Below, piece after piece: positions 808 to 21,037 of a DNA stretch of 64,000 bases. Where the stretch lies: IMG/VR virus record IMGVR_UViG_3300017655_000275. One strand, given 5' to 3'. A program made the translations under genes and the position numbers. This DNA is from a virus (Duplodnaviria; Heunggongvirae; Uroviricota; Caudoviricetes). Positions within the stretch are counted from its first letter, which is position 1. Every line of letters begins with the position of its first letter. The notes below the pieces were generated by a model that was not told the DNA's origin, ran no database searches, and saw only the letters and a list, made by a program, of their open reading frames with translations.

Positions 808-835
808 TAAAAAATGGCCGCGGTTCACCGCGGCC
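808..835 (-). terminator. Rho-independent terminator, read on the minus strand, for the DUF465 gene
   Basis: A perfect 8-bp stem (ggccgcgg/ccgcggcc) with loop ttca is followed on the minus strand by a TTTTTT run (plus-strand aaaaaa at 809-814). It may also be the IS605 subterminal hairpin. Confidence 0.45.
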
Positions 836-859
836 AGATTCATGATCATGACGGCGCCA

Positions 860-1027
860 TCATGCCGCGCTGAGACGCTCGATCTCTTCCTTCAGCGCCA
901 GCTTCTCGCGCTTCATCGCGGTGATGTCGAGGCTGTCCGTTCCTGGGGAGGCCTGGGCCTTGCTGATCTCGCTATCAAGATTTGCGTGTTTCTCCTTGAG
1001 GGCTTTCACGTGGTTCTCGACAGACAT
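860..1027 (-). CDS. DUF465 (YdcH-like) small protein
   Basis: This ORF is not in the six-frame track. Translation gives MSVENHVKALKEKHANLDSEISKAQASPGTDSLDITAMKREKLALKEEIERLSAA, with a GGAGGA SD 5 nt upstream. It matches the DUF465 pattern. Confidence 0.6.
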   Translation of the reverse strand: MSVENHVKALKEKHANLDSEISKAQASPGTDSLDITAMKREKLALKEEIERLSAA

Positions 1028-1108: not shown

Positions 1109-1666
1109 TCAGGACAATTTTCGGATTGTTGCCCCGCCCGTAATCACACGAAGTTTCGGCCGTTGCCGGGGCAGGGCTCGGGGATCGGCGCCACCAGCCG
1201 TGAGAGGGCGCACATGACCGTCGGCATGAATGATCATGCGGGAGTTCGTCCACTGGATCTCGCCGCCTGCATTCAAGGCCGTGGCGTTCGAGACGATCAT
1301 CCTGGTTTCGTCGGGACACCAATGGCCGCTGATCGTGCAGGCAGATCCGGCCTTGATAACGGCAAGGAGAAACCGGTCTGTATCGTCCTGGCTGGCTTCC
1401 AGACCATCCCTGTCGAGGAAATAGCCATGCACACCCGGTCCGGATGCCGAGATCATGATTCCCTGGGGGGTCTGGGAAACCATGCCCTGATCGCCTTTGG
1501 CACCCGGCGCTATGCCGTAACGGTCCATCCACCGATGCAACTCGCCAACATGCGAAGCTGAGAAAGGGCCGGCCCGCAGGCGGCCGTCAGGATAGCTTCC
1601 AAAGCCTGGGACAGGGCGCAAGGTGATCATGGCAACTCCATACTGATTGGAATCTGCCGGTATCAT
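1109..1666 (-). CDS. hypothetical protein (possible metal-dependent hydrolase-like fold; family unclear)
   Basis: 185-aa ORF with coding-like composition. GHWCPDE and IIHADGH His-rich patches are present. Family not recognised. Confidence 0.4.
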   Translation of the reverse strand: MIPADSNQYGVAMITLRPVPGFGSYPDGRLRAGPFSASHVGELHRWMDRYGIAPGAKGDQGMVSQTPQGIMISASGPGVHGYFLDRDGLEASQDDTDRFLLAVIKAGSACTISGHWCPDETRMIVSNATALNAGGEIQWTNSRMIIHADGHVRPLTAGGADPRALPRQRPKLRVITGGATIRKLS

Positions 1667-1735: not shown

Positions 1736-3544
1736 TCACATGGATAAAGGAGGAGACGAACTAAACTCCTCCTCGGGTTCTGGCTCGCCATGTAGCAGGG
1801 CCGTCTCGACCACCGCGGCAAGATTCCGGATCTCTTCCCGGTGCTCGAGCCATCGCCTGGCCAGGTCGACCTCCGCCCTGATATCTGCTTCGATATCCTT
1901 GTCCCGGATCTCTCCCATGAGATCGGTCAGGAGGCCGGCATAGTCCTCGTTGTGCCAGTCATGCACGCAATGACAGACCTCATGGAGAGCGAGGGAGATG
2001 AGCTTCTTCATCGATTTGGGATCCGACAGCTTGAACAGTCCGCGGCCGCCCTCATCGACCGGATTGAGCAGCAGGCCGTGCCGGATACCGTTAAGCTCCT
2101 TGTGGACGGCGCGATAGTTGCTGTCGAATACGAAGCCGGACACCCATTCCTCTCCCTGCAGGTCTGGATGCATTTCAACCAGCGCCTCAAGAGCATGACG
2201 ACAGGCCGCATGCCATGCCGCATGAAGCAGTTCCGCATTGCGTCCGGCGCCGCCGGGCTCAGACCAGGTGGAGGCGTCGTAGCGCTTCGCCGCCGCCCTC
2301 ATCTCGGTTGTCGCAACACCGACGTGATGGGCGAACGATATCCTGAGCGTGTTATCATGGACCGTCTCACGGAGTGCATCCGAGCTGACTTCAGCGGAAT
2401 TCCTGTTCCTGCTCCTGGCAGCCTCACGCAACTCTTGAAGGCTCATCCTCGCGGCCTCCAGTTTTTCGTCGGCTCGCGATCGATCACCGCCCTTGCCGGC
2501 GGCCCTGTCATGGGCCCGCTTTCCGATCCGTGGATTGCCAGTCATCGAGGCGTTCAGGAACAATTTCGTTTCCGGATCCCTGGCCTTTTGCGACAGGGCG
2601 GTTTTCTGGTCCACCTCGATCTTCGAGATCAGTTTTCTCAACTCACCTGCAAAGGGATGTCGAATGCTGTCCCTGGAGGCCGTCAGGACCTCCCTGGCTC
2701 TTGCTGGCTCCAGGTCGATTGTGAGTTGATAGGGTGCGGCCAGGTGGTCCTGATACATCGCCATGCCATTCACCCTGACAACGGCCCTGTTCTTCTCGGC
2801 GGTCTTGCCGCCAGACAGATGAACTGTTCCCCAAAGACCATTCTCGTCCTTGAGTTGATCAATCTCGCGGCCCTTCCTGGACCATCCGGTAAAGCGGAAA
2901 GCTCCAAGTTTCTCATCGAATGAAGCAAGCTCTTCGGGTATCAGGGGCAGAGGGTTGCCCTCAGGATCTTCTTTCGCCAGGTTCATTGTGACGGCGCAGC
3001 GGATGGAGGATTGCGCCAGGACGTTCCTGAGACCGGTATAGAGCCGCGGAATCCTGCTCGGTAGCAACTCGATGGTGATCGCGGTTCCCTTGACTGAACG
3101 CGTGTTCGGCGTCACCTCATAAAAGGCACCGTCGCCAGACACGACGATATCAGAGGTAACGATCTGGTATTTTTCCTGTGAAAAACAGGTCAGGATCCGC
3201 GCTCTGCCGAAACCGCCCACGCTGCTTTCCGACTGATCCTTCGTGGATGCACCAAGCGCCATATAGACGTTCTCGACGACATCCCGGCTCATGCCGGCGC
3301 CGTTGTCGAGAAACTCCACGATCAGGTTTTCGTCGCTGAACTTCGTGGCGATATGCACGCGCGTGGCGCCCGCGTCCAGGGAGTTGGAGATCAGCTCGCG
3401 CCAGAAGGCTTCCCGCCAATTGTCGTAATTTGAATCCCGTTCCTTCCGGAAGAAATCCTTGGGAACCGCAACCGTTTTCATGTCTGGAATTCTCCTTCGC
3501 ATCGAGGAGAGAATAGCGCTCGGACACGAAAAACCCGAGATCAA
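1736..3544 (-). CDS. GHKL (Bergerat-fold, HATPase_c-like) ATPase fused to a C-terminal SprT/zincin-like HExxH domain
   Basis: ELISNSLDAGATRVHI (N box) and EFLDNGAGM (G1 box DxGxG) are present, with LALHEVCHCVHDWHNEDYA near the C-terminus. The start overlaps the upstream gene by ATGA. An alternative start, MKTV at 3481, has an AAGGAG SD. Confidence 0.65.
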   Translation of the reverse strand: MISGFSCPSAILSSMRRRIPDMKTVAVPKDFFRKERDSNYDNWREAFWRELISNSLDAGATRVHIATKFSDENLIVEFLDNGAGMSRDVVENVYMALGASTKDQSESSVGGFGRARILTCFSQEKYQIVTSDIVVSGDGAFYEVTPNTRSVKGTAITIELLPSRIPRLYTGLRNVLAQSSIRCAVTMNLAKEDPEGNPLPLIPEELASFDEKLGAFRFTGWSRKGREIDQLKDENGLWGTVHLSGGKTAEKNRAVVRVNGMAMYQDHLAAPYQLTIDLEPARAREVLTASRDSIRHPFAGELRKLISKIEVDQKTALSQKARDPETKLFLNASMTGNPRIGKRAHDRAAGKGGDRSRADEKLEAARMSLQELREAARSRNRNSAEVSSDALRETVHDNTLRISFAHHVGVATTEMRAAAKRYDASTWSEPGGAGRNAELLHAAWHAACRHALEALVEMHPDLQGEEWVSGFVFDSNYRAVHKELNGIRHGLLLNPVDEGGRGLFKLSDPKSMKKLISLALHEVCHCVHDWHNEDYAGLLTDLMGEIRDKDIEADIRAEVDLARRWLEHREEIRNLAAVVETALLHGEPEPEEEFSSSPPLSM

Positions 3545-4140
3545 CGTGGAAGGGAAAAGAATGTCTCCGGATCACGCTCCTCGACATTGCCGGCATCGAT
3601 CTCGACGCTTTCATCCAGCTGAGATCTGGCAATGGATGCCCGCAGATCCGAAATCTCCTTTCGTGCGGCTGAAAGATCTGCCCTTGCGACGCTCAGGTCC
3701 TTGGTTAGCTCGGCAATCCAGGACATTATGGCCTTGCGTTCACGCATAAGTCGGCCGCGCGTCGTCACCACGAAGTCGGAATCGTCCTTGAGGCTGCCGT
3801 CCGCAGGCATAACGGCGCGAAAGATCCTGGCCTGGACGATCTGTTTCTTGACGAGGTCGGTTACCCGCCAAGACTCTGGCTTTCCATCATGGTCCGTGGC
3901 TTCCCGCGGTCGCGAACCGGGGCCGGGGCGTCTTTCCGGTATGCCTTTCACTTCCATTCCGATGTCCCGGGCGATTCCGAGAACCTCCCCCGGCGTGGAC
4001 CCGAACGTTTCGGCAATAGAGCTCAAGTCGCCGTAATCAATGGTGTTTCGCCGGGCTTTACTGCGTAATTCGCAGGCGGCCAGGTCGGAAAATTGCATTG
4101 GAGCAGTCCTGATTGTCATGTCATCAGACATGAAAAGCAC
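3541..4140 (-). CDS. hypothetical protein, translationally coupled to the GHKL ATPase gene (possible N-terminal HTH, coiled-coil C-terminus)
   Basis: 199 aa. There is a 4-nt ATGA overlap with the downstream gene. The C-terminal half is charge-rich and helical-looking (LSVARADLSAARKEISDLRASIARSQL). Confidence 0.5.
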   Translation of the reverse strand: MLFMSDDMTIRTAPMQFSDLAACELRSKARRNTIDYGDLSSIAETFGSTPGEVLGIARDIGMEVKGIPERRPGPGSRPREATDHDGKPESWRVTDLVKKQIVQARIFRAVMPADGSLKDDSDFVVTTRGRLMRERKAIMSWIAELTKDLSVARADLSAARKEISDLRASIARSQLDESVEIDAGNVEERDPETFFSLPR

Positions 4141-4300
4141 GTCTTGCCGAAGATTGGAACCTCCAAGATTCCCACCTCTCCGGGCGCGGGGCTGGAGATG
4201 ATGTGGATATAGCGAAAAACGTATTGCTTTTCATTTTTCAAGCACCTATTCTTCCTGTATTGGGTTGCTGTTCAATGGTGAACGCCCGGGCCCCTAATCC

Positions 4301-4337
4301 TGGACAAGGCGGGTTCGATCCCCGTGTGACCCACCAA
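4301..4337 (+). other. tRNA 3'-end fragment (T-arm, acceptor 3' strand and CCA); likely an integrase att-site remnant, not a functional tRNA
   Basis: The sequence ggcgggTTCGATCcccgtgtgacccACCA has a T-stem GCGGG/CCCGU, T-loop UUCGAUC, discriminator A and CCA. No anticodon stem can be formed in the upstream 45 nt. Confidence 0.55.
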
Positions 4338-4459: not shown

Positions 4460-4897
4460 ATGTCGGAAGGAAAGGCAAATGCCCAGTCAGGCCATGCCTA
4501 TCTCGATGCGCTTCTCCACTCTCTCGGACATTCCGATCACTCTGTAAGGCAAGCTGCGCAAGACTATGCGCAGCTCAAGCCAGGAACCAAGATATGTCTT
4601 GATGGCGGGCCCGCCGGCGGTTTCGATCGTCTGGTCTGCGGCCTGGTGCAGGCTGGTATCCCGTTTGTCACGATCACTGACCGCGATCATGTCGAACTGC
4701 CACATTTCGATGGCAACCCGATCGTCACCGCGATCGGAATAGGACCTCTTTCAAAATCAGAGATTCCCCCCTGTCTGAAGCGACTCAAGCTTTGGAAGGG
4801 CGGTGCGCGCTCGCACCTGGGTCTTTCCCAGGGCGGCAAACCGGCCGTGTCCGATCCCGGTCAGGCCGAAGTCATCCAGGCAATTCCGTCTCGATGA
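4460..4897 (+). CDS. PTH2-like (peptidyl-tRNA hydrolase 2 / DUF2000-type fold) protein
   Basis: Motifs: GKANAQSGHAYLDAL...KICLDG...LVQAGIPFVTITDRDHVE...PIVTAIGIGP. This resembles the PTH2 pattern. Confidence 0.4.
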   Translation: MSEGKANAQSGHAYLDALLHSLGHSDHSVRQAAQDYAQLKPGTKICLDGGPAGGFDRLVCGLVQAGIPFVTITDRDHVELPHFDGNPIVTAIGIGPLSKSEIPPCLKRLKLWKGGARSHLGLSQGGKPAVSDPGQAEVIQAIPSR

Positions 4898-4926
4898 AGA
4901 ACAACTCCATGAAAAGGAACATCACC

Positions 4927-5334
4927 ATGGAACTGAAAGTCGTCACCTCCAAAACGATCAACCTGCATGCGGTCCAGGTCGCAGCGGTCATCGCCGGACG
5001 TCCGGTCCGCGAGGACCTGAAACTTGATGCGGACACGGCCTTCATGGCCGCCGAAAGCTTCTTTGAAGAAAGAGGCGTCAACGACCTCGAGAGCTATCTT
5101 GCTCACCGGTCGGAAGTGAAAGCAGGACTGCGCGTAACCGCGGCCACCATCCGCGAGCTGAAAAAGACCATCCGGCCGATGGACGGCTACAGTCAGGGAT
5201 ATTGGGAAGTCCGCAAGGACCTCGCTCTTGCGAGGAGCCGCTTCGGCGAACTCCACGACATCCGGGTCCTGGGCAAGGCCTGGTCGGCCGAGTCCCGCAA
5301 GCGGAAGGACCAGGCGGAAGAGTTGGCGGCATGA
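4927..5334 (+). CDS. hypothetical protein
   Basis: Start MELKVV with an AGGAA SD 8 nt upstream. The longer ORF-track start (4792) is a low-complexity extension. Confidence 0.45.
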   Translation: MELKVVTSKTINLHAVQVAAVIAGRPVREDLKLDADTAFMAAESFFEERGVNDLESYLAHRSEVKAGLRVTAATIRELKKTIRPMDGYSQGYWEVRKDLALARSRFGELHDIRVLGKAWSAESRKRKDQAEELAA

Positions 5335-5470
5335 TCCTGCCTGGCGCCGCGGTTGCGCGGCGCCAGGCCTTCAGATTTCGATCTGTCAAGAACGGCGGCA
5401 AAATTTCCTGTTTCACAATCCGAACTTTCGCATGCCCGGAATATAAAACTGGACAAAGAGTGATGAGGAT

Positions 5471-5944
5471 ATGATGCGTGAGATCGACAAGTCCGTGGAG
5501 CGTTGGGTGTTCGGCTATTGCTTTCCCATGGCAATAGCCCTGCACCAACATACCGGTTGGTCGATCGGCGCGATGACGGCTGACCGCGGGAATGGCCGCG
5601 GGTCACAGATGGCACATAACTGGGTTGTCGATCCTGATGGAGGATGGTGGGATGCTGCCGGAAGGCTGACCAAGGCCGACCTCGAAGAAGCCTTCCTTTC
5701 GACAGAAACGGATGAATGCCGTGCTTCCGCCCGTTACGATGTCTTTCCAGACATCGAGAGCTACAACCTTCATATTGAACAGGTCGAAGGCGGCTGGGCA
5801 AGCCAGGCGTTCAAGTGGCTGAAGCAGATGGCGCCATCAGCTGAAGAAGCTGCACTAAACCTCGTGATACCACGCCATCCAGAGCTGCAGGACGCGGTGG
5901 AGCGCAGCTTCACGGAGCCTGGATATCTGGCGCTCCAGCTTTGA
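5471..5944 (+). CDS. hypothetical protein
   Basis: 157-aa ORF with a GAGGA just upstream of the ATG. Confidence 0.45.
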   Translation: MMREIDKSVERWVFGYCFPMAIALHQHTGWSIGAMTADRGNGRGSQMAHNWVVDPDGGWWDAAGRLTKADLEEAFLSTETDECRASARYDVFPDIESYNLHIEQVEGGWASQAFKWLKQMAPSAEEAALNLVIPRHPELQDAVERSFTEPGYLALQL

Positions 5945-5945
5945 C

Positions 5946-6437
5946 TCAGGAACTGCCGCTGCGCCGCGCCTTGCGCCAGTCAGCTGGGTAATCGAAACGA
6001 CCGCCCCAGAGGCCGGTTCCGTTCCGGCGCGCGGCCTCTTCCGCGGCCTTATAGGCGCCGGCCTTGTCCATGAAGCGAACGGCATGACCGTTGCCCACCA
6101 TCCACAGCCCGATGTCGATGCCGTTCGCCTGGCATGAGGCAAGGATCCGCTTGTATCGATCGCGTCCCTGGCTTGCGCACTGGACGGTCGCGGTTCCGAT
6201 GAAGTCGGAGAGCGCCAATGCTGCTGATTGGCCGCAACGCCAGGCCGTGCCGTCCTTCTCGCAGAATTGTCCGCTTTCCGGTGCGTCGAAGCCTACGAGG
6301 CGAATACGCTCGCCGTGGATCTCGATCGTATCGCCATCGACCACCGATGCCCGGCCGGAAAGCTGCGGATCGGCAGCGTTCGCGGTGGCCGTTGCCGCCA
6401 TGAGTAGCGTGAGGGCGAGGGGCAGATATCGGAGCAT
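5946..6437 (-). CDS. secreted thermonuclease (SNase-like) family protein
   Basis: Signal peptide MLRYLPLALTLLMAATATANA. The SNase motif is present (ERIRLVGFDAPE). There is an AGGAAGGAA SD in front of M30, so the N-terminal 29 aa of the track ORF are rejected. Confidence 0.65.
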   Translation of the reverse strand: MLRYLPLALTLLMAATATANAADPQLSGRASVVDGDTIEIHGERIRLVGFDAPESGQFCEKDGTAWRCGQSAALALSDFIGTATVQCASQGRDRYKRILASCQANGIDIGLWMVGNGHAVRFMDKAGAYKAAEEAARRNGTGLWGGRFDYPADWRKARRSGSS

Positions 6438-6580
6438 CGGCGGTTCCTTCCTGGGCGTGCCGTAAGCTATCGACATACATTTTGATGGGCAAGCGAAAAC
6501 GGTGGATAAGAGAGTTATTCGCAAAACAAACTGATTTCAATCCGCTAGGATTGAGGAGATACGAGATCAGGAGTTGTCCA

Positions 6581-6985
6581 TTGCCTCACAAACATTTCGA
6601 CCTGCTGCAGGATATCGCTTCGAAGTTGCGGGCAGACTGCGCCGAACTGGAGGGCATGACAGGGATCGCCGGAGACGAATTGGTCGAGGAACTCGAAGAT
6701 CCGGCAGATTTGCCTGCGCTGCACGACATGCGCGAGCTGCTCGACCTGGCGACAAGAGTTGAAGTCTTCATGGAAATGCCGGCCAACGGCCGCCATGAAG
6801 GGTTCTTCGCCCTCGTGTCCGACCTTGTCGGGCATTTCGAACGCGAACTCCTTCTCCTTTCCGAGAACGAGGAACTTGGCGGCGCTGAGGATTTCGACGA
6901 AGTCGACGCTGATCTTCACGATCCCCTGGGCAGCATGAAGAAGCTCATCAAGTTTATCGCAGGACTGCGGCTTATTCATGGTTGA
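6581..6985 (+). CDS. hypothetical acidic protein
   Basis: TTG start with an AGGAG SD 7 nt upstream. The track start at 6482 has no SD and would overlap the nuclease promoter region. Confidence 0.35.
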   Translation: MPHKHFDLLQDIASKLRADCAELEGMTGIAGDELVEELEDPADLPALHDMRELLDLATRVEVFMEMPANGRHEGFFALVSDLVGHFERELLLLSENEELGGAEDFDEVDADLHDPLGSMKKLIKFIAGLRLIHG

Positions 6986-6999
6986 TGGTTCGCGGATGA

Positions 7000-7530
7000 T
7001 CAGGCGAAGGAGAGGAAATCCGGAGAGACGTGATCCGTCAGCCAGACACCGTTGTCGGCCCGGTAGAAGATTGCTCCAGCCAATGCCATGCCGGCGCAAT
7101 TAACGGACAGGACGACAGCCTTGCCATGGCGGCCGCCGACACGGGCGGCTGTCTCCATATCTCCGGAGAGGTGCACCATTTGCCGGCGCATTGGCTTCAG
7201 ACCTTCGGCAAAGATCGCATCCAGAACATGTCGGGCCGTGCCGTGCCAGAGGATATCGGGCGGCCTCCCAGGGGACAGCTCCAGGTCGACCTTGATGGAG
7301 TGGCCCTGTGCGGCGCGAATGCGATGGCCATCTTCCGATAAGACGAAACGCCGCTTGTCATTATCCCGGACGATGTCTTCCAGGACTTGCCGCGATATAT
7401 CGAAACCGGCTCGCTTCATCCCGCGGATGAGGTCGTCCACGCGCACCCAGCCGCCGGGACCTGGAACAAGTCCGGCAAGGTCCGGTCGGTGTCGGAGGAT
7501 AAGCGCGAGTTTTTTCGACGTTTTGCTCAT
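7000..7530 (-). CDS. kptA: RNA 2'-phosphotransferase KptA/Tpt1
   Basis: N-terminus MSKTSKKLALILRHRPDLAGL...GWVRVDDL. Catalytic region ILWHGTARHVLDAIFAEGLKPMRRQMVHLS. Confidence 0.8.
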   Translation of the reverse strand: MSKTSKKLALILRHRPDLAGLVPGPGGWVRVDDLIRGMKRAGFDISRQVLEDIVRDNDKRRFVLSEDGHRIRAAQGHSIKVDLELSPGRPPDILWHGTARHVLDAIFAEGLKPMRRQMVHLSGDMETAARVGGRHGKAVVLSVNCAGMALAGAIFYRADNGVWLTDHVSPDFLSFA

Positions 7531-7597
7531 GCGATTATGTTAGCAATACGGATGTGCCGGGACAATATCCTGCACGCAGTTGCGGATTTGGTCGACT

Positions 7598-8149
7598 TCA
7601 GATGACACCGCCCTTGCCTCGTATCCAGCCCTCCGGATTAATATAGGGAACACGCATCTCGATGATTGTTGAGCCCTTCGGATCCCTGCGATTGTCATCC
7701 GGCCCACGACATTCAAGACTGATATATCTTCCAAGGATTGTGGAAAAACCGTTGTAATAATATCCGTTTCGACTGGTCAGTCCCGCTCGCATGCTCTTGC
7801 AGATGCGTGGATCGCTGTCCTTGAACCAGAAATAGACATAGCGGGCTGTGGCTTGGCCAGGCATGGTCTCCTGGCTCATGGAGATCTGACCTCCGAAAGG
7901 GACGATACCCTTCTCGATGGCGCCGAATTTTCCCGCGCGGATCTTGCTCAGGTAGGAACCGGTCTCCAAGGTCATATCGCGATCAAGGCGCTCGAACTCA
8001 CTGACCACGATCTGGATGGCCTTGATGCGGTCGTTCAGATTGACCTGGGCCTTGGCCCGGCCATAGATCGTCAAACCGCTGAAAATCAGTCCCATGGCGA
8101 GGGCTATATAGAGCACCACTTCCATGAGAGTGAAGCCTCTCCGCGGCAT
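7598..8149 (-). CDS. prepilin-type N-terminal cleavage/methylation domain protein (pseudopilin / type IV pilin-like)
   Basis: MPRRGFTLMEVVLYIALAMGLIF matches the G|FTLxE class-III signal and hydrophobic helix. Start set at M23 of the track ORF. Confidence 0.6.
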   Translation of the reverse strand: MPRRGFTLMEVVLYIALAMGLIFSGLTIYGRAKAQVNLNDRIKAIQIVVSEFERLDRDMTLETGSYLSKIRAGKFGAIEKGIVPFGGQISMSQETMPGQATARYVYFWFKDSDPRICKSMRAGLTSRNGYYYNGFSTILGRYISLECRGPDDNRRDPKGSTIIEMRVPYINPEGWIRGKGGVI

Positions 8150-8307
8150 GACTGCCGTGAGAGGATATTGCCTCTGGAAAGAACGTCTCGCATGCCCCAG
8201 ATTCATGGCCATCACTGCAATATTTGCTTCGTATCTTCGCCGGACCTAATCTCGTTTCTGGCAAATCCTAGTGAACGTTGCGAAGAAGTGTGTGGATGCC
8301 GGTTTTC

Positions 8308-8847
8308 CTAGATACTGCCAAGAGTAATTTCTGTTACAGGATCCCGCCCGGTCAGAGCAAAATCCAGTGTTGTCGAGGCGTCGACCTCCAGCCCGGCTTC
8401 ATCGCTGCTGAGATCGTAGATGTCTCGATCCTCTGGATATTCTATCGCTTCGACGATAGTCAGCTTTTCCGGATCGAAGATGCAGATCGCGCCCTCCAGG
8501 TCGCAATCCTCCATCTCGCAGATGATGCCGTCATATCCGAGGCTCATGAGCTCCTTGCGCGCTTTTTCGAAGCGAGGCCAAGCCAACTCTCGATCGGTCG
8601 GATACAGATCGGGCCCGCCCCAGATTGCGGTATGCCGATCGAGAGCCGGAGCGAGTCGCAGGGTCTCTGCTTCGACAATCATGATTGCGCGGCCGCCGCC
8701 ATAGCCGGATGCTGCCTCGGGATCGCGGGTCAGCCAGACACCGAGAACGGAATTCGGCTCCGCTCCCATGCCGATCTGGTAAGGATCGAACTGGTCGAAA
8801 ACGCTCCTCGATCCATGAAAAAGTCGGACACTCACGGCGACCTCCAT
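8308..8847 (-). CDS. hypothetical protein
   Basis: Start moved to MEVAVSV. The track start MIQ coincides with an upstream ATGAGAAAA motif and has no SD. Confidence 0.3.
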   Translation of the reverse strand: MEVAVSVRLFHGSRSVFDQFDPYQIGMGAEPNSVLGVWLTRDPEAASGYGGGRAIMIVEAETLRLAPALDRHTAIWGGPDLYPTDRELAWPRFEKARKELMSLGYDGIICEMEDCDLEGAICIFDPEKLTIVEAIEYPEDRDIYDLSSDEAGLEVDASTTLDFALTGRDPVTEITLGSI

Positions 8848-8963
8848 CCCTGTCTGAAGGGAGATATTTCCACAACCGAAATACCCAATCCTCAAGCGCT
8901 TCTTTCTTCTTTCAGGTGATTCCTGTATCATGAGAAAAAACTAACAGTAGAAGGTGCCGTCCC

Positions 8964-9326
8964 ATGATCCCTTCAAGAGAGACGTCCATTGCCCTCGACA
9001 GATCCTGGACACAGCTGGAGTCTCGTGATCCGGAAGGTCTCGACCCGGATGTGACCGTGCACCGCGGGTCCTGTGGAAACATGAAGATCGTCGAATTCCG
9101 CACAGGCAGACACTGCCTGGTCGAGATCAGGAAAGACACGCTCTCGGAATTGCTTCAGGTTACCCCGGGCCACGGCTTGGGAAAAACCGAACTGAAGCGG
9201 GCCAGCCGTATCGTTTCACTCTGCGCATCGATGGGAGCAGGGAGCGCTCCTGCTATGAGCCGTGTCGGTCGGTTCCGTGACGAGCCCTTCAGTATCGGCA
9301 TTCCGACACCCTGTGGTGCGATCTGA
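8964..9326 (+). CDS. hypothetical protein (first gene of the plus-strand operon)
   Basis: 120-aa ORF. ATGAGAAAA motif 35 nt upstream. Confidence 0.45.
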   Translation: MIPSRETSIALDRSWTQLESRDPEGLDPDVTVHRGSCGNMKIVEFRTGRHCLVEIRKDTLSELLQVTPGHGLGKTELKRASRIVSLCASMGAGSAPAMSRVGRFRDEPFSIGIPTPCGAI

Positions 9327-9328
9327 CC

Positions 9329-10045
9329 ATGGTGGGAAAAATTACACCAAGCGCGCAAGAACGCATCCTGGCGATAAGGATGACCCTCGCCCAGATCAGG
9401 GACGCCAGGACACGCGGTTCCAGGTTTTATGCTATGGGCGAGAAAATGCTAGATAGAGCCGGCATGAATGCGTTCTGTGCCGATGCGACACATCGCCTGA
9501 TCCAATTGAAATCAGGACCCGTTACCCGGAAAATCCTGACAAACGCTTTGAGTTGGCACAATTTGATCGTCTTGAAGGGGATCATCGACAGAACCGAAAA
9601 ATCGGGACTGAGCTCCATCGCAGGGTTTGGCAGTGATATCCTGAAGGAATACGGCATTGAGGCCGGCCCGGGAGCCGCCGGCACCCAGGCCGGGCGGAAC
9701 CGGATCCTGCGCAGGATGATGCGGAAGCACTTCCAGGCGGCCTTCGAGGACCTTCCGCCTCTTGTCGCGTGTGACAAGAGGGAGGCGGCTAGCAGGCAAA
9801 GATCTGCGGAAAAGACATTCAGGATCCTGATCCGTGACATCCACGCGGGGGCGGTGGTCCTGCCGAAGGGCACGGTTCTCGAGGCCAGTAGCTCCGGAAT
9901 GTTCCGACCTTTCGACAAGAACGGTCCTGTCGTCGACGTCCATCCCTGTCACACCCGGACAGCACGCAAGCGCGACAAGAAGAAGATCCATCTGGTCCTC
10001 GCTGAGAACGGCGCGGAATTGCCTGACGATCCATCGCTATTCTGA
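9329..10045 (+). CDS. hypothetical protein
   Basis: Starts 3 nt after the upstream stop (translational coupling). 238 aa, no recognised motif. Confidence 0.45.
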   Translation: MVGKITPSAQERILAIRMTLAQIRDARTRGSRFYAMGEKMLDRAGMNAFCADATHRLIQLKSGPVTRKILTNALSWHNLIVLKGIIDRTEKSGLSSIAGFGSDILKEYGIEAGPGAAGTQAGRNRILRRMMRKHFQAAFEDLPPLVACDKREAASRQRSAEKTFRILIRDIHAGAVVLPKGTVLEASSSGMFRPFDKNGPVVDVHPCHTRTARKRDKKKIHLVLAENGAELPDDPSLF

Positions 10046-10054
10046 GGAAAAGCC

Positions 10055-11152
10055 ATGTCATTCAATTACACTCCCGGCATCGACATCGCTCAATCCGACG
10101 CCCGCTACCTGGTCAATACCGTCAACTGCAAGGGCGCTATGGGCGCGGGAGTCGCCTTGGCCATCAAGAAGCGGTTTCCGGAGATCGAGGGGCGCTACAA
10201 GGAGGCCTGCACGGCCGGAAAGCTCCTGCCTGGCGGGTTGATGGTCTCCCCGACGAAGGACGGTCGGGCCATTCTCAATATCGCCACCAAGGATCATTAT
10301 TGGACCGAGGACCGGAAGTCCGCACCCTCGCGATATGAATGGGCCGGCTATGCGCTCCTGAACCTGAATCGCTGGCTCGTCGGGATGGCGCCTGAAAAGG
10401 GCAGGGTGGCCATGCCGCTTCCGGGTGGCGGACATGGTCAGCTGGATCAGGCGCGCATAGCACGGATGTGCAGGACATATCTGGCTCCGGCACTGGAAGC
10501 CGGTTTCGATATCGATCTCATCTCGCCGGAGTTTCCGCTTGCCGAGGATCCTGTCTTCTATGCCGGGGTCGGATCGCGTGATACTCCGACAGGCGACATC
10601 GCCGATCTCATGCGGGAAATGGCGGGAATGGCGGCCGAAGACGGCTGGCTACTCAGGTCCGGAGGCGCGACAGGTGCCGATACTTTCTTTCATGAAGGTG
10701 CGCTTGCGGCCGGAGTGAAATCGGAGATCTTCCGTCACAACCGGAAATTCAATGGTCCCGAGCAGGTCTTCGAAACCAGGGATGTCCATTACCGGCTCGC
10801 GATTTCCGTCCACCCCGCGGCGACCAGGCTGAGTGAATGGGCCCTTGGGCAACATGCCAGGAACGGCTGCCAGGTTTTCGGTCCGGACTTCACCGTGCCG
10901 TCCAGCATCGTGATCTGCTGGACGAAGGACGGCGGCTATAATGGTGGAACAGCTCAGGCCATGCGGTATGCGGATCTGGCTGGGATTCCCATACTCAACC
11001 TCGGGAAGCCGGAGCTGCAGGGGATTTCCGCCACGGATGCGATGAGCCTGGCACGAAATATGATTGCGGATCGGCATTCCCGCATCGGCCAGAAATTCAA
11101 CACGGCACGTGAGGTGGATACTGCCCCGCAGGCCGGATCCTTCGGAATCTGA
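10055..11152 (+). CDS. Macro domain fused to a DprA-like (SLOG) Rossmann domain
   Basis: N-terminus: YLVNTVNCKGAMGAGVALAIKKRFPE (macro glycine-rich ADP-ribose-binding loop). C-terminus: YAGVGSRDTPTGD...LLRSGGATGADTFFHEGALAAG (DprA GSR and SGxAxGxD signatures). GAGGAA SD. Confidence 0.65.
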   Translation: MSFNYTPGIDIAQSDARYLVNTVNCKGAMGAGVALAIKKRFPEIEGRYKEACTAGKLLPGGLMVSPTKDGRAILNIATKDHYWTEDRKSAPSRYEWAGYALLNLNRWLVGMAPEKGRVAMPLPGGGHGQLDQARIARMCRTYLAPALEAGFDIDLISPEFPLAEDPVFYAGVGSRDTPTGDIADLMREMAGMAAEDGWLLRSGGATGADTFFHEGALAAGVKSEIFRHNRKFNGPEQVFETRDVHYRLAISVHPAATRLSEWALGQHARNGCQVFGPDFTVPSSIVICWTKDGGYNGGTAQAMRYADLAGIPILNLGKPELQGISATDAMSLARNMIADRHSRIGQKFNTAREVDTAPQAGSFGI

Positions 11153-11161
11153 GGAAGCGAT

Positions 11162-11770
11162 ATGCGCATCGACGTCTGGCATGGCACAAATCAGAATTTC
11201 GACAGCTTCGATCGGCAGATGTTGGGCCTGAACACGAATAATACCACATCAAGGCAGGCTTTCTTCTTCTCCGGAAGGCCTGATACGGCATGGGAATACG
11301 CGACTTTCGCCGCCAGGAACCTGGTGCCGGACCAGGTTGCCCACGAAAGGCAGGTCGCGGAGCTCATCGAAAGGGCCGCCGCGGCCGAGCGCCGGCGGGA
11401 TTTTGATCTTTACGAGGAACTGACAGCCGCCGCAGAGGAACTGGAATTCACCGCGATCCACTCACCAGCGAGCGGTGAAACACTTTTGTCATGCAGGCTG
11501 GAGATCCGGAACGCGCTGGAGGTCGAGGCGTCGGATCCCCGGATGACGTCCGGTTTCGGTGATATCCTTCAGGAAGCCAAGGCTGCTGGACATGATTGTG
11601 TGATCGTCCGGAACATGAGCGATACTCCGAGCGGTGCTTGCCAGCCGGACGATCACTATGCGCTCTTTAACACGGATCTGATCGCCATTCTTGATCGATA
11701 CCACTCGCTGGAACAGGCGCTTGCGGAGACCGGGACCGAACTGGCTTCCCCAGACTTATTCTCATTCTGA
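11162..11770 (+). CDS. ADP-ribosyltransferase-fold protein (HGT motif; Tpt1/PARP/DT-like), lacks a Tpt1 N-terminal winged-helix domain
   Basis: RIDVWHGTNQNFDSFD at residues 2-17 resembles YHGT(K/A) of DT/Tpt1 (compare kptA LWHGTARHVLDAI). Lies 10 nt downstream of the macro gene. Confidence 0.4.
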   Translation: MRIDVWHGTNQNFDSFDRQMLGLNTNNTTSRQAFFFSGRPDTAWEYATFAARNLVPDQVAHERQVAELIERAAAAERRRDFDLYEELTAAAEELEFTAIHSPASGETLLSCRLEIRNALEVEASDPRMTSGFGDILQEAKAAGHDCVIVRNMSDTPSGACQPDDHYALFNTDLIAILDRYHSLEQALAETGTELASPDLFSF

Positions 11771-11827
11771 CTTGAAGTCGGAACAGCTATCTGCCATTAT
11801 CATCGCAATGTGAAAATGGAGATGGGC

Positions 11828-12520
11828 ATGCCTGTCGAGACCGATCCCTATCTTGCAAGCCGCCCTGCGACGACGGTCGATATCGTCCTGGTGACGATGG
11901 CCGAAGGCAAGCTTCACGTGCTCGTCCATAAGCGCGCAGCAGATCCCTTCAAGGACAGCTACGCGCTTCCGGGAGGTTATATCCACATCCAGACGGATGA
12001 CAGTGCCGAGAGTGCGGCCTGGCGGATCCTTTCAGAGAAGGCAGGCCTCCCGGCCTATCACCTCGAACAGCTTGCGACCTATTCGGGACCGGATCGTGAT
12101 CCCCGGGGCTGGTCGATCTCCGTGACCTTTCTTGCCTTGGTTCCGAGGGGGGAACTCCCGGAACTCGACGGTGATGTGGTGACTCTGATTCCTGTCGATG
12201 AGATCTCGGAATGGAACCTTGCATTCGACCATGAGATGATCATCGAAGACGCGCGGATCCGCATGAAGGGAAAGTCGACATATTCGACGCTTCCTGCAGC
12301 CCTTCTGAATGAGCCTTTCACCCTTCGGGAATTGCATGCGGCTTACGAGGCCATGTCAGGCGAAACCTTCAACCGGAGCAACTTCGGACGAAAGATACTG
12401 ACTCTCGGCGTCCTCGAGGAAACCGGCGAGAGGCGGCAGGAAGGGATCAGCAGGCCGGCCCTGCTTTACAGGTTGTCCGGCGGTATCCGGGCATTCGATC
12501 GAAACCTCGGGAATTCGTGA
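11828..12520 (+). CDS. NUDIX hydrolase with a C-terminal NrtR-like winged-helix domain (ADP-ribose pyrophosphatase / NAD regulator family)
   Basis: Nudix box region ALPGGYIHIQTDDSAESAAWRILSEKAGL. The C-terminal about 90 aa are wHTH-like. The track start at 11810 is GTG. An ATG at 11828 has a GGAG SD 6 nt upstream. Confidence 0.55.
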   Translation: MPVETDPYLASRPATTVDIVLVTMAEGKLHVLVHKRAADPFKDSYALPGGYIHIQTDDSAESAAWRILSEKAGLPAYHLEQLATYSGPDRDPRGWSISVTFLALVPRGELPELDGDVVTLIPVDEISEWNLAFDHEMIIEDARIRMKGKSTYSTLPAALLNEPFTLRELHAAYEAMSGETFNRSNFGRKILTLGVLEETGERRQEGISRPALLYRLSGGIRAFDRNLGNS

Positions 12521-12546
12521 GCAAAGGCCTGATCAAAGGAAAGACC

Positions 12547-12897
12547 ATGGAACTGACTGCACAAAACGTCGAAGCTCTCTTTGCCACCTGCATGCGCGAC
12601 AGCGGATCGGTTACGGAAGGTGTCATGGGAAGCGTATTCCTGGACGTGACGGATCATGAAGAAGAGATCGGCAGCATGCTGTCCGGTCTGCCCAATGAGT
12701 TCCAACAATCCGGCGGTGGCGGATGGACCTTTCTGAACGCCTGCATGGACAAGAACGGCGAGCAATGGACTGGCATGCACCAGACCATGGATAAGCTCTT
12801 CATGCTCGGAATCGCAGCCGGAAAGGCCAGGTTCCTCCTGCCTCGCGACCTGTGGCCCGCACTTCCTGGCGGCATGCCTTATGTTTCGGTGAACTGA
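12547..12897 (+). CDS. hypothetical protein
   Basis: Start MELTAQN with an AAAGGAAAG SD. The track ORF start overlaps the NrtR-like gene by 4 nt. Confidence 0.45.
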   Translation: MELTAQNVEALFATCMRDSGSVTEGVMGSVFLDVTDHEEEIGSMLSGLPNEFQQSGGGGWTFLNACMDKNGEQWTGMHQTMDKLFMLGIAAGKARFLLPRDLWPALPGGMPYVSVN

Positions 12898-12900
12898 ACC

Positions 12901-13173
12901 ATGGGACAGAACCGGTATGGAACCTGGGACGACGCCAAAATGGAGGCGAATGAGCGGCGGTATCAGAAGCGCATGCGCGCGGCAGACGAAAAATTCGTGA
13001 ACCGCTACAACGCCGCGCTTGAAAAGTTGAGAAAAATGGAGCGGGACCATCGGGCCTGGGTGGACGAGCAGCGTCGCCTGTTCCGGGAAGAGCAGGACCG
13101 CCTTGTAACCCCACATGCCGAGACTCAATGTGAGCCAACTTGCCGGCCGGAACGCGACGCAAGTGGAACATGA
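12901..13173 (+). CDS. hypothetical small charged protein
   Basis: 90 aa, K/R/E-rich. Starts 4 nt after the upstream stop. Confidence 0.4.
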   Translation: MGQNRYGTWDDAKMEANERRYQKRMRAADEKFVNRYNAALEKLRKMERDHRAWVDEQRRLFREEQDRLVTPHAETQCEPTCRPERDASGT

Positions 13174-13188
13174 AAAAGGGAGCCGCTC

Positions 13189-13410
13189 ATGAAACATGAT
13201 GCCCAGATCGATACCGCGATCATCGTCGACAGCAAGGAAGATGCTGACCGGCTGGAGGCAGATCTTGCACCGCTTTCGACCGAGTCCTCCGTGGCCAGGC
13301 AGAGAGGCCGTTGGACCGTCTTCGCCCGGTATCCCGCGCTTAACGTCGCCAAGGTCGGACTTGCGGTCGCACGCCACCTGGATGATCGTGACGCTGCACC
13401 GGCTCCTTAG
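13189..13410 (+). CDS. hypothetical small protein
   Basis: AAGGGAG SD 7 nt upstream of the ATG. Confidence 0.4.
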   Translation: MKHDAQIDTAIIVDSKEDADRLEADLAPLSTESSVARQRGRWTVFARYPALNVAKVGLAVARHLDDRDAAPAP

Positions 13411-13454
13411 GGAACCGGGAACTGCACGTGATCGCCAAACCGTAAGGAAATCCC

Positions 13455-13931
13455 ATGTCCTGGAAGCTTCAGCGGACCAAGCAATGCGCGAAATGTCCCT
13501 GGAAGGTGTCGACCGATCCGCGTGATATCCCACACGGATATTCAGAAGATCTGCACAGATCTCTCGCCGGCACCATTGCGGACGGAACGGGAAACCTTGC
13601 TGCGGCACTGGGGAAGGAGCCACTGCGTATCATGGCTTGCCACGAGCACCCGGTCGGCAAGGAGGTTCACTGCCTGGGGTGGCTGATGAACCAGCTGGGA
13701 GATGGCAACAATATTGCCCTCCGGCTTGCCATGCTCGATTGCGAGAACCTCGATCGTGTCGATCTTGATGGTCCGCAGCATGATTGTTTTGAGGATACGC
13801 TGCCAAAGGATCCGGAGACGCCAGGCATCCAGGTGGATCACACGGACCTCATCGATGAGCTTGAGGACGCGATCAGGAAGGCCGAACAGTCCGAAGTTGT
13901 CCCCACAAGCTATAAGGTCTCCCGTTTCTGA
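13455..13931 (+). CDS. hypothetical Cys/His-containing protein (CAKCPW...MACHEHP...HCLGW), possible metal-binding
   Basis: TAAGGAAAT SD. Conserved-looking Cys/His spacing. Last gene of the operon. Confidence 0.45.
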   Translation: MSWKLQRTKQCAKCPWKVSTDPRDIPHGYSEDLHRSLAGTIADGTGNLAAALGKEPLRIMACHEHPVGKEVHCLGWLMNQLGDGNNIALRLAMLDCENLDRVDLDGPQHDCFEDTLPKDPETPGIQVDHTDLIDELEDAIRKAEQSEVVPTSYKVSRF

Positions 13932-17097: not shown

Positions 17098-17157
17098 CAG
17101 GATCTCCGGTTTGGGAGATCCTGAACATTTTCCCGTCAACCCGTCAATGGGCCTGAA

Positions 17158-17400
17158 CTAACCCGGGCTCCAGGTATGTTCCGCTTCCGGATCGTCGACC
17201 CGCTCAACCAGATCCCCAGGCTCGATCGTGCCGTCTTCGTAGCTCCAGCTTCTTCCGGACCAATCGGCAACATACCATTTCGTGCCGTCGCCCGGAACCG
17301 TGCGATCGAGCTTGACCAGATCGCCGAGATGGTCCCGGAAGACCATGTCCGGGCGCAATTCATGGCGCCGATCATACCAATCTTCGCGATTTTCGGTCAT
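17158..17400 (-). CDS. hypothetical small protein
   Basis: Start at internal MTENRED with an AGGAG SD 8 nt upstream. The upstream part of the track ORF is Gly/Arg-rich junk. Confidence 0.35.
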   Translation of the reverse strand: MTENREDWYDRRHELRPDMVFRDHLGDLVKLDRTVPGDGTKWYVADWSGRSWSYEDGTIEPGDLVERVDDPEAEHTWSPG

Positions 17401-17414
17401 CGCCATCACTCCTC

Positions 17415-18959
17415 TCAGGATCCCAATCCAACTACGGCATCCGCGTCCGGAGCCGCGTAGCGTTCCGGCCAGACCCACCCGGCCTCGTCGACTTTCGATG
17501 GATCCACCGAAAGTTCCTTTGTCGAGATCAGGAACATGTCCTCGCTCCATGGAGGGGTGACGAGATCAGGACTTCCGAAGTGCTTGAAGAACCTGGTCGA
17601 GCCATGGCCGGTGGCCATGTAGACGTTCAATTCCGAACCTGGCTCGGTTTCAATGACCGCGACAGAATTATTCTTCGCATATTCATCGAGAAGCGTGCCG
17701 GCTTCCTCACGCGTAGTTGGAGCCCCCTGGACCGGCTCGTCACGATCTCCTATCCCGCCGTTTTCAGCGATGCGCTGCCCGCCGGCTACCAGGATGTCGA
17801 TCAGGATTTCCCGGTCGGCGAAGGTGACATCCCATAGGTCGCAGCAAACCTGGCCGATGACGTCAGGCCATGCGCCATCCTTCTTGCTGTAGTCGGAAGG
17901 ATCGTCCGGGTTGATGTCCCAGAGATCTTCATGATCCTCGTCGATCCAGCCGATCCGGTAGACGATGCCATCGCGTGTGACCTGCGGCACGCAATTGGTC
18001 GTATGGATCCGCATCAGACCCAGGCGCTCATAATGATCCTGCGTGCGCTCATCTACGCCTTTGTCAGCATTGATGCTTGTGCGGCTGTATTCGTCCTGGT
18101 CGTTGATACCTTCATTGAAGCCGGGGATGCGGAACCAGTCGGCCATGTATATCCGCCCGGAAGGTGCGCTGATCTTCAGATGCCTCAGTGGCTTTGGCGC
18201 ATCCCAGGGACCGAGCTCCTCGAACCGGGTCGTCTCGCCGGTCATGCGGTTCCCGTAATGCATGATGCCGGCCACCGGCTCAAGAAGGCTGTCGCTCTTC
18301 CAGGTAAGCCTCTGGTCGGTTTTGGGGCAACGCATTTCAGATGACATGCTGAAGAAACGTTTCGCACCTGATCCCATCAGAACGGCGCGTTCCGCTGCAG
18401 CTGCGGCGGCCTGGCTGACATGCTCAGGGCCAACCGGCATCAATGCCTTTGCGCCGGTTCGCCCGGACTTGTCATGGGCGGAATGTGGATCCAGGCCCGC
18501 ATCGGTCCTCAATTGCCGAATGCAATCGTAAGCGCCCTCGAAGATTCCCTGGCTGATGGCCTGCGGCAATGGACAGTGGAAAAGTGTGCTCCAACCATAT
18601 TTTGGGGCGTCAGCCGGACCCTTTTCGACGAAACGGTTCCACTCGACAGCTTCGCGAACCCCCCGCTCGGCTCCAAATGGAACAGGCCTCATCTTTCCCT
18701 GGTCGCGCAACTCCCCGAGAATTTGAAGCACCGCAAGTTGCAGAGCATCATGGTGAAAGATGTGCGGCAGAGAATGTTGGAGCGCTTCATCCGTCCCCAT
18801 TTCCTCTGCGCTTGGAAGCGGGGAGTTAAAGCTCTTTTTCACACCGCGAGAGTATCCATCCATGGTCGAAGAAATCCATCCATGGACAATCTCGGCGTTG
18901 ATATGCTTGCGGATGATCTCAGGATCGAATTCCAGTTTTCCGGTCTTCTTACTGCCCAT
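17415..18959 (-). CDS. hypothetical protein (514 aa), part of the minus-strand array ending in the restriction-modification gene
   Basis: Long ORF with strong coding periodicity. No recognised motif. Confidence 0.5.
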   Translation of the reverse strand: MGSKKTGKLEFDPEIIRKHINAEIVHGWISSTMDGYSRGVKKSFNSPLPSAEEMGTDEALQHSLPHIFHHDALQLAVLQILGELRDQGKMRPVPFGAERGVREAVEWNRFVEKGPADAPKYGWSTLFHCPLPQAISQGIFEGAYDCIRQLRTDAGLDPHSAHDKSGRTGAKALMPVGPEHVSQAAAAAAERAVLMGSGAKRFFSMSSEMRCPKTDQRLTWKSDSLLEPVAGIMHYGNRMTGETTRFEELGPWDAPKPLRHLKISAPSGRIYMADWFRIPGFNEGINDQDEYSRTSINADKGVDERTQDHYERLGLMRIHTTNCVPQVTRDGIVYRIGWIDEDHEDLWDINPDDPSDYSKKDGAWPDVIGQVCCDLWDVTFADREILIDILVAGGQRIAENGGIGDRDEPVQGAPTTREEAGTLLDEYAKNNSVAVIETEPGSELNVYMATGHGSTRFFKHFGSPDLVTPPWSEDMFLISTKELSVDPSKVDEAGWVWPERYAAPDADAVVGLGS

Positions 18960-18962
18960 TAT

Positions 18963-19625
18963 TCACATCCCCGGTTCTGCAGAGTCGGTATCGTTTTCAG
19001 CCTGATATTCCTCCACGTAATCCGTATCGGCGAGATAGACCTTGCCCTGGACAGGCGCATTCAGCCGCATCGCGGCGCTGCAATCCATGTTGCCAAGAGA
19101 CACTTTGAGTTCGCCTGACTCGGTCTCCACATAGACCTGACGCCCATCATCGAACAGGATCTCGATGGCTGCCGGGTATGTTCTGACGGCATATTTCAGG
19201 TTGCGAGGCGTCTCCTCACCTGGCTCGAGACCAAGTTCGAAAATTCGGAAATCTGACAGGGCAGAATACTGCCGGTTGCAGCCGGCATCGAGTTCTCGAG
19301 CGATCTTCCTGACATCGGTCAAATAATCGATCTCATCGTTGAAGAGTGCCCGATCCGCCGGATCGTGATTGTGACGTTCCACGGCATAGGCAAGATTAAG
19401 AAGAATGGGCGCGACGAGACGGGCAGCGACATGAAGCTGACCCCAGCCGGCATAGCGTTGCGCCGCCCGGAGCGTCTGCAGCATTTCCGACCTGACGCAA
19501 TCGGGAAAACCGTCGCTCGCCAAGGAAGGTTTTTCTGCCGTGCGGGTAAAGAGGCCCTCCCAGACAGGTAGGGCCTCTTTCAGTCTCTGCAGGCGGTCAT
19601 GAATTTGGGCATCCCGTTTCGACAT
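18963..19625 (-). CDS. hypothetical protein
   Basis: 220 aa. 3-nt gap to the downstream gene. Confidence 0.45.
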   Translation of the reverse strand: MSKRDAQIHDRLQRLKEALPVWEGLFTRTAEKPSLASDGFPDCVRSEMLQTLRAAQRYAGWGQLHVAARLVAPILLNLAYAVERHNHDPADRALFNDEIDYLTDVRKIARELDAGCNRQYSALSDFRIFELGLEPGEETPRNLKYAVRTYPAAIEILFDDGRQVYVETESGELKVSLGNMDCSAAMRLNAPVQGKVYLADTDYVEEYQAENDTDSAEPGM

Positions 19626-19635
19626 GTCATCGCCC

Positions 19636-20022: not shown

Positions 20023-20111
20023 CCTTTTTTCCTTCCGGATCATCTTTTCGCAAAGGGGCAACATCACAAGAATAGGAGCGATCGTGCGAAAAAGACAACC
20101 GAAAGAGGCGA

Positions 20112-21012: not shown

Positions 21013-21037
21013 GTTCATCCTCCATCGAAGAGTATTC

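Follow-up and report, generated by a model that had tools for sequence, protein, structure and literature searches.

A GHKL ATPase-metalloprotease fusion family carried by phages and other mobile elements

The 64,000-nucleotide (nt) stretch of Caudoviricetes DNA described here (IMG/VR record IMGVR_UViG_3300017655_000275; the whole stretch is referred to as the window) encodes near its left end, on the minus strand, a protein in which a MORC/MutL-type GHKL ATPase is fused to a SprT/WLM-type zincin. A preliminary description of this region, based on the letters of the sequence, presented the gene as one half of a translationally coupled two-gene operon and as a candidate defence system. The domain identities are supported by profile and structure comparisons, the catalytic motifs of both domains are intact, the homologues are carried by mobile elements, and the gene has no conserved partner. 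The fusion proteins form an uncharacterised family with an informative architecture and not a new two-gene defence system. The function that we favour, with about even confidence, is proteolysis by an ATP-gated dimer that mobile elements would turn against proteins of the host or of rivals, which may be bound to DNA.

The fusion gene and its product

The fusion gene lies at 1736–3481 on the minus strand and encodes a protein of 581 amino acids (aa) from the ATG at 3481. The longest open reading frame (ORF) at this position has 602 codons (1736–3544, minus strand) and begins with a TTG codon at 3544; the upstream small gene occupies 3541–4098 on the same strand, with 185 aa from the ATG at 4098 in the gene call and 199 aa if translation begins at the GTG at 4140. 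Both long ORFs of the preliminary description (602 codons, and 199 codons at 3541–4140) are thus present, and the supported starts are shorter, giving 581 and 185 aa. For the fusion gene, independent gene calls from three sources yield the identical 581-aa product (P0001), a Shine-Dalgarno-like AAGGAG is read from the sequence at 3492–3497 (minus strand), 10 nt 5' of this ATG, and all 28 aligned homologues either begin at the position of ATG 3481 or add just short, non-conserved N-terminal extensions. ATG 3481 is therefore the likely start of the gene. The junction with the upstream gene reads CGTTGATC, where the TTG of the longest fusion ORF (3544–3542) overlaps the TGA stop codon of the upstream gene (3543–3541), and this is the only overlap at the junction. 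The ATGA overlap on which the proposed coupling was based is absent; with a start at ATG 3481, a gap of 59 nt separates the two genes and there is no translational coupling. The gene itself is real far beyond chance, because 168 full-length homologues of its product were found at 29–52% identity, the best non-identical one with an E-value of 4e-172.

The N-terminal domain (aa ~20–140, nt 3062–3424) is a GHKL (Bergerat) ATP-binding domain with an N box (E29/N33/D36; RELISNSLDAG, nt 3374–3397), a G1 box (D59xGxG63; DNGAGM, nt 3293–3307) and a GGFGRAR motif at residues 89–95. The protein scores 45.1 bits against Pfam HATPase_c_3, for which the cut-off is 25, and displays the ExxxNxxD, DxGxG and glycine-rich ATP-lid motifs of the GHKL superfamily together with the Bergerat fold, as the preliminary description had read from the motifs. 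This domain is followed by a transducer-like second domain (aa ~141–295, nt 2597–3061) in which R236, R270 and D271 are invariant, and the two together form a GHKL and S5-fold transducer module that resembles MORC structures. Structure comparison thus bears out the assignment to MORC/MutL-type GHKL proteins. A linker of low model confidence follows (aa ~296–372, nt 2366–2596), which is poorly conserved and varies in length across the alignment. The C-terminal part consists of a Wss1/WLM-like zincin domain (aa ~373–525, nt 1907–2365) with an HExxHxxxxxH motif formed by H500, E501, H504 and H510 (HEVCHCVHDWH, nt 1952–1984), and of a modelled long helix (residues 527–563) with an acidic tail (aa ~526–581, nt 1739–1906) that varies in length across the family. 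In the alignment of 28 homologues, E29, N33, D36, D59xGxG63, GGFGRAR, R236, R270, D271 and H500-E501-xx-H504-x5-H510 are all invariant, so that the catalytic centres of both domains are intact and conserved, with the variable linker between them.

An AlphaFold2 model of the full protein, built from the 28-homologue alignment, has a mean predicted local distance difference test score (pLDDT) of 84, with low pLDDT in the linker. The C-terminal domain modelled by itself reaches a pLDDT of 92 and a predicted template modelling score (pTM) of 0.85, and the HExxHxxxxxH zinc site is placed on a minimal zincin fold. The best fold match of this domain is Wss1, with SPRTN matching more weakly, and its profile searched against solved structures had a sole match, the WLM domain of Wss1b, with the catalytic helix aligned (E = 0.038). 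Pfam WLM (PF08325) matched the window protein at 15.9–17.5 bits, which is under the gathering cut-off of 26, and gave similarly sub-threshold matches (E <= 1) in 15 of 21 C-terminal domains of the family, the best at 6e-5. The region around HExxH does model as a zincin, and the proposed SprT/WLM type is upheld by these results; the placement near WLM rests on fold and motif, from the model and without a match at the curated threshold. No hydrophobic segment was obvious when the fusion sequence was read by eye, and no transmembrane predictor was run. A basic linker was considered as a hint of DNA binding and was dropped owing to a charge that is inconsistent across the family.

Distribution of the family and its relation to phage rIIA

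Fusion loci are rare. A set of 185,579 species-representative genomes yielded nine, IMG/VR yielded 20 (the longest contig measures 494 kb), and metagenome contigs contributed a further 163, of which the best 80 were kept. One 495-kb contig with a fusion gene is filled with small unidirectional genes with almost no Pfam matches and looks like a jumbo phage. Further homologues are located on alphaproteobacterial megaplasmids, and others in plasmid-like or island-like DNA; none of this is a housekeeping context. The fusion proteins are rare accessory proteins of phages and other mobile elements.

Clustering of the neighbouring genes identified a recurrent phage-type block, which begins with an AAA_21-like ATPase, a Fic-like protein, an unknown, an AAA_25/RecA-like ATPase, a second unknown and a small coiled-coil protein, followed by the fusion, and continues with an ankyrin-repeat protein of ~200 aa, three unknowns and a metallophosphatase. 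The ankyrin-repeat proteins fall into four related clusters from ~25 loci, are ~200 aa long with the repeat at the C-terminus, and are encoded directly downstream of the fusion gene (for example L018 11791–12384 and L122 11856–12455; also in L017). This protein is the sole recurrent adjacent gene found for the fusion family. In 17 other loci the neighbours include genes for DNA methylases, NAD-dependent DNA ligase, RNA ligase, NADAR, DarG-like protein, primase, RecJ, aminoacyl-tRNA synthetases and metallophosphatases; UmuC/UmuD-like proteins and SSB occur in other loci as well, and Mrr_cat and WYL genes are found near the Sulfitobacter homologue. Our own ORF picker sometimes took antisense ORFs in GC-rich DNA (such as 512–1561 on the plus strand of the window in place of a 173-aa gene), which may affect the neighbour clusters.

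Among viral proteins, the closest match of the fusion is rIIA, represented by T4 rIIA and the N4 gp33-like 'rIIA-like' proteins; the likeness covers the N-terminal GHKL domain and the domain after it, and both families are carried by phages. The best PHROGs family for the fusion is RIIA (PHROG 612, E = 3.6e-9). A tblastn search against 50,697 phage records matched only N4-like 'rIIA-like' proteins, covering aa 17–293, and among these records of cultured phages there was no full-length homologue of the fusion. Profile alignment with hhalign gave 96% probability (E = 2.6e-9) for the rIIA-like protein of KP8 and 73% for T4 rIIA, and a Foldseek search of BFVD returned a list dominated by rIIA models, with ~335 aligned columns. 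The N-terminal GHKL module is thus of the rIIA type, with the PHROG and tblastn similarity ending at aa ~113–293. The profile of the C-terminal zincin showed no detectable similarity to the C-terminal regions of T4 rIIA and KP8 rIIA, and the HExxH motif occurs in neither protein; a hidden zincin in rIIA was accordingly rejected as none was detected in T4 or KP8 rIIA. The N-terminal half is thus rIIA-like, and the protease is specific to the fusion family.

The fusion is not a full rIIA member, as the similarity leaves out the C-terminal half of rIIA and the adjoining rIIB gene is missing. No rIIB homologue is present in the window, and none is adjacent to the fusion gene. In seven loci of uncultured phages, a canonical rIIA that is 31% identical to T4 rIIA (E = 9e-35) and a rIIB-like gene are found ~5 genes downstream of the fusion on the same strand (in L055, an example of the L051–L063 group, at 8174–10408 and 10649–11497). 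These canonical rIIA proteins form a cluster separate from the fusion proteins of the same phage loci. Since phage contigs with the fusion can also carry canonical rIIA-rIIB, the fusion represents a distinct paralogous family. The C-terminal half of rIIA is itself variable, and its biochemical role has been described as poorly understood (PMC7824862). The fusion is the closest protease-bearing relative of rIIA.

The upstream gene and the surroundings in the window

The small protein encoded upstream of the fusion gene was previously described as a coiled-coil protein. Weak coiled-coil profile matches in its C-terminal third agree with this, and nothing further does. A word-indexed search with the small protein returned only itself. 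An exhaustive HMMER search recovered ~10 remote homologues of 173–194 aa that have common motifs and a common C-terminal region, in which coiled-coil profiles match just weakly; their loci encode PcfJ-like, DNA methylase, NYN and DUF proteins, and no GHKL-zincin gene is found in them. Conversely, the small protein is absent from ~110 other fusion-bearing loci. A tblastn search with 12 proteins of the partner family against 123 loci matched only copies of the window's contig and the partner's own fusion-free loci, and neighbour clustering confined the small-protein cluster to copies of the same contig. Immediately ahead of the fusion gene, Sulfitobacter and Defluviimonas have genes of the opposite orientation.

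Two candidates for a less obvious partner were also rejected. A distant relationship between the small protein and the small coiled-coil proteins encoded ahead of the fusion in phage loci (cluster 12) was not borne out, as hhalign found no similarity in sequence-profile or profile-profile comparison. Genes of ~265 aa that follow several bacterial-type homologues bear no relation to one another, and some are apparently spurious ORFs. The co-occurrence across homologous loci that would mark a two-gene operon is not observed, and with neither the ATGA nor a shared distribution the proposed coupled operon does not hold. The small gene is a separate mobile-element gene that is adjacent by chance, and the two genes are not a conserved pair.

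Downstream of the fusion gene, the same-strand run of genes continues with a gene for a 173-aa protein (1109–1630, minus strand; gene call) that matches nothing in Pfam or PHROG, and ends with a small DUF465 gene (860–1027, minus strand; PF04325). The 173-aa protein exhibits 41% identity to a 168-aa protein of Sulfitobacter-type loci (L004-6, L037, L039 and L048), where it is encoded two genes away from the fusion; among the fetched loci, these supplied the only homologues detected for the 173-aa protein. A terminator-like hairpin at 815–836 (minus strand), with a 9-bp stem (8 GC pairs) and a T run after it, is the only strong one on this strand. The terminator scan of the minus strand found no site in either gap flanking the fusion gene, and the other terminator-like site in the gene run (3149–3127) is inside the fusion coding sequence. 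A single transcript of four genes is therefore possible.

An IS605-type Y1 transposase gene, tnpA, lies at 328–741 on the plus strand, with OrfB just past the window start, which confirms the IS605 element noted before. Further out, the order in the left flank is the 173-aa gene, DUF465, IS605, several unknown genes, an AbiE pair, a tryptophanyl-tRNA synthetase (TrpRS) and an FtsH-like gene; the AbiE-type toxin is ~5 kb from the fusion gene. The TrpRS gene (17692–18705 of the contig record L001, ~6 kb beyond the window start) is accessory-looking. The best named match of its product, from Cereibacter, has 74% identity, and its matches include Cupriavidus entries named 'Tryptophan--tRNA ligase 2'. 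TrpRS homologues of 52% identity are encoded within 2 kb of ~780-aa variants of the fusion in two unrelated loci (L079, ~7883–8857, and L082, ~7856–8830). As no named protein exceeds 74% identity to this TrpRS and homologues of it lie beside two distant fusion loci, the left flank was not taken for core chromosome, and it may also be part of a mobile element.

On the other side, what had been taken for the 3' fragment of a tRNA is a complete tRNA-Arg(CCT) of 75 nt (4262–4336, plus strand; ARAGORN), divergent from the gene run. Neither the window nor the fetched flank beyond it contains a repeat of its 3' end, and the idea that the tRNA marks a direct-repeat attachment site was thus rejected. 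The island boundary placed here earlier is doubtful, with an intact tRNA and genes of mobile-element type on either side; a composition profile for island borders was uninformative. In a second sample (ERZ27256357) two contigs abut at window positions ~4503–4510, ~170 bp past the tRNA, which is an assembly break and uninformative on integration.

Beside the tRNA is an array of genes of NAD/ADP-ribose and RNA-repair type, which encodes PTH2 (4460–4897, plus strand), SNase (5946–6437, minus), a KptA/Tpt1 RNA 2'-phosphotransferase (7000–7530, minus), two ART-PolyVal-like proteins (7598–8125, minus, and 11162–11770, plus), Macro (10055–11152, plus), NUDIX-NrtR (11828–12520, plus) and DUF6283 (13455–13931, plus). 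The array (4460–13931) resembles a counter-defence arsenal of a mobile element. Such domain types are described for the 'polyvalent' and NAD/ADP-ribose conflict genes of phages and conjugative elements (PMC5512222; PMC9503650). It is followed by genes for an MmeI-like methylase/restriction-type protein of 960 aa (14215–17097, minus), a 514-aa protein with no family match (17415–18959, minus), a SNF2-family helicase (22993–24741, plus) and, among many small genes with no family match, a 581-aa protein with LPD5 and LPD1 domains (39064–40809, minus). The combination at 14215–24741 is typical of polyvalent-protein modules, although here it is divided among separate genes. A LuxI-type autoinducer synthase is encoded at 49053–49643 (minus strand) within a mobile-element-like region, and three LuxR-type regulators occur in a related fusion locus (L123). 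The right side of the window also holds RlaP, PAPS reductase and insertion sequences, and most of its remaining genes have no family match; the part from 51 to 64 kb was annotated from our own ORF picks alone. An exact 18-nt direct repeat, AGTTCCTCGAGTTACGAC, is present twice at 54701–54745, 27 nt from start to start, inside the overlapping ORFs 54555–55967 (minus) and 54642–55916 (plus).

Possible function and comparison with known systems

MutL, MORC and Hsp90 undergo ATP-driven N-terminal dimerisation, and Wss1 and SPRTN carry out DNA-dependent proteolysis. By analogy with these proteins we infer the dimerisation, the DNA dependence, the kind of target and the side of the conflict on which the fusion would act. 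Binding of ATP would dimerise the N-terminal modules into a clamp, and closure of the clamp would position or license the C-terminal protease, which would then cut its target, most plausibly a DNA-bound protein. The benefit to the element would lie in counter-defence, in takeover of the host or in competition against rivals. Carriage by phages and in plasmid-like DNA, together with rIIA-rIIB nearby in seven loci, points to a function on the side of the element over one in host defence. In a bolder form of the proposal, which we consider rather unlikely, the family would be an undescribed class of mobile-element weapon, an ATP-gated, MutL/MORC-like dimeric clamp with a Wss1-like protease that loads on DNA and destroys DNA-bound proteins of the host, among them nucleoid silencers and the complexes of restriction or other defence systems, and would amount to a catalytically explicit paralogue of rIIA that in some phages is encoded near rIIA-rIIB.

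Several points weigh against an ATP-gated, possibly DNA-directed protease of mobile elements. The inter-domain geometry of the full-length model is uncertain (pTM 0.52), and the net charge of the linker, mostly slightly positive, is not so in every family member. For T4 rIIA an association with the membrane has been described, and this does not point to a clamp on DNA. Phages and prophages carry defence and exclusion genes too, so that carriage does not settle which side is served, and no phage structural or virion genes and no conjugation genes were seen in the annotation of the window.

The defence system first proposed would be directed against phages or plasmids, with the small coiled-coil protein and the GHKL-zincin as sensor and effector and the protease as an abortive-infection effector. 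It would draw on the occurrence of GHKL/MORC ATPases in restriction-like systems (Iyer et al. 2008, PMC2292703), on the AbiE-type toxin of the left flank, on the Mrr_cat and WYL genes near the Sulfitobacter homologue and on the frequency with which mobile elements carry defence genes. Searches of both genes against PADLOC-DB v2.0.0 returned only weak matches of the ATPase core, to MzaB (E = 3e-4) and a type II restriction enzyme (REase_II, E = 0.008), and the small protein matched no model. No PADLOC family was matched past this core, and no complete known defence system recurs among the 141 neighbours, whose top PADLOC matches are mostly to methylase models. The missing partner at every other fusion locus, the partner homologues that occur without a fusion, the absent ATGA and the opposite-strand upstream genes in Sulfitobacter and Defluviimonas all tell against a working pair, and many homologues are inside phage-like contigs, some of them near rIIA-rIIB. 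A defence function of the pair is quite unlikely on this evidence. Closer to the rIIA comparison is a functional analogue of T4 rIIA, which would shield infection or establishment by the element from abortive infection or exclusion by a resident prophage, acting at the membrane or by cleaving an abortive-infection effector and not on DNA. Among viral proteins it is rIIA that the N-terminal half resembles most, and the fusion is a few genes from rIIA-rIIB in the seven phage loci, but no counterpart of the zincin was detected in the C-terminal regions of rIIA, the window has no rIIB-like gene next to the fusion, the sequence offers no obvious hydrophobic segment, and the presence of a canonical rIIA in those phage genomes speaks for a role of its own for the fusion. 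We regard such an analogue as unlikely.

The protease could also serve to repair DNA-protein crosslinks on the element's own DNA, where it might strip off covalently bound topoisomerases that have become trapped, relaxase or terminal proteins after ATP-dependent loading by the GHKL module. In structure the protease domain is indeed closest to the crosslink proteases Wss1 and, more weakly, SPRTN, and DNA ligase, RecJ, SSB, primase and UmuC/UmuD-like genes are neighbours in other loci. The likeness to Wss1 is at the level of the fold only, at ~12% identity, the association with repair genes is not consistent, and a family this patchy and rare (9 loci in 185,579 genomes) fits general repair poorly, which leaves a repair function very unlikely. 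Quality control by an Hsp90-like chaperone-protease with no role in conflict is highly improbable, as MORC and MutL score equal to or higher than Hsp90, neither the middle nor the C-terminal domain of Hsp90 is present, and the family is restricted to mobile elements.

The pairing of a GHKL ATPase with an effector is a recurring design, seen in MutL with its nuclease and in rIIA with a C-terminal half of unknown role, and zincin proteases are common tools of mobile elements. With both catalytic sites intact and conserved, the fusion is directly testable with ATPase-dead and protease-dead mutants, and its substrate, once identified, could show what rIIA-type ATPase modules sense. A weapon that clamps on DNA, if real, would offer a possible biochemical handle on the enigmatic ATPase module of rIIA. 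For annotation, the 'ATP-binding protein' entries of the family can be relabelled as GHKL ATPase/WLM-like metalloprotease fusions of mobile elements.

Among the known systems, MutL has a layout that parallels that of the fusion, with a GHKL N-terminal module, a flexible linker and a metal-dependent C-terminal effector. The sequence identity of the fusion to MORC, SMCHD1 and MutL is just 12–15%, the mutL model TIGR00585 scores 30 bits against a cut-off of 180, and the MORC and MutL profiles match nothing past the ATP-binding core; no MORC-specific profile of Pfam or NCBIfam was matched. The effector of the fusion is a protease, unlike the nuclease or chromatin reader of MORC/MutL-type proteins. 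Prokaryotic MORCs have a described operon association with restriction-modification genes, and methylases occur near some fusion homologues, inconsistently. With Wss1/WLM and SprT/SPRTN the fusion has the zincin fold in common, and its HExxHxxxxxH ligand spacing equals that of the Wss1b WLM domain, but it lacks the SUMO, ubiquitin or p97 interaction modules of Wss1/SPRTN-type proteases. To our knowledge, neither Wss1 nor SPRTN has been described in fusion with an ATPase, and no description of a GHKL-WLM/SprT fusion was found in the searchable literature. MzaB, the GHKL ATPase of the MZA defence system, matches in the ATP core with 21.6 bits against an NCBIfam cut-off of 850; its C-terminus is unlike that of the fusion, and the other Mza components were not found at the locus. 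Like the fusion, ArdC and the MPTases of polyvalent proteins (PMC5512222) are zincin proteases of phages, plasmids and conjugative elements, and the window itself encodes further domain types of polyvalent proteins (ART-PolyVal, LPD5/LPD1, SNF2 and DNA methylase). The fusion differs from ArdC in lacking the ArdC-N domain, and the account of polyvalent proteins includes no GHKL partner domain, with the terms GHKL and HATPase not occurring in it (PMC5512222).

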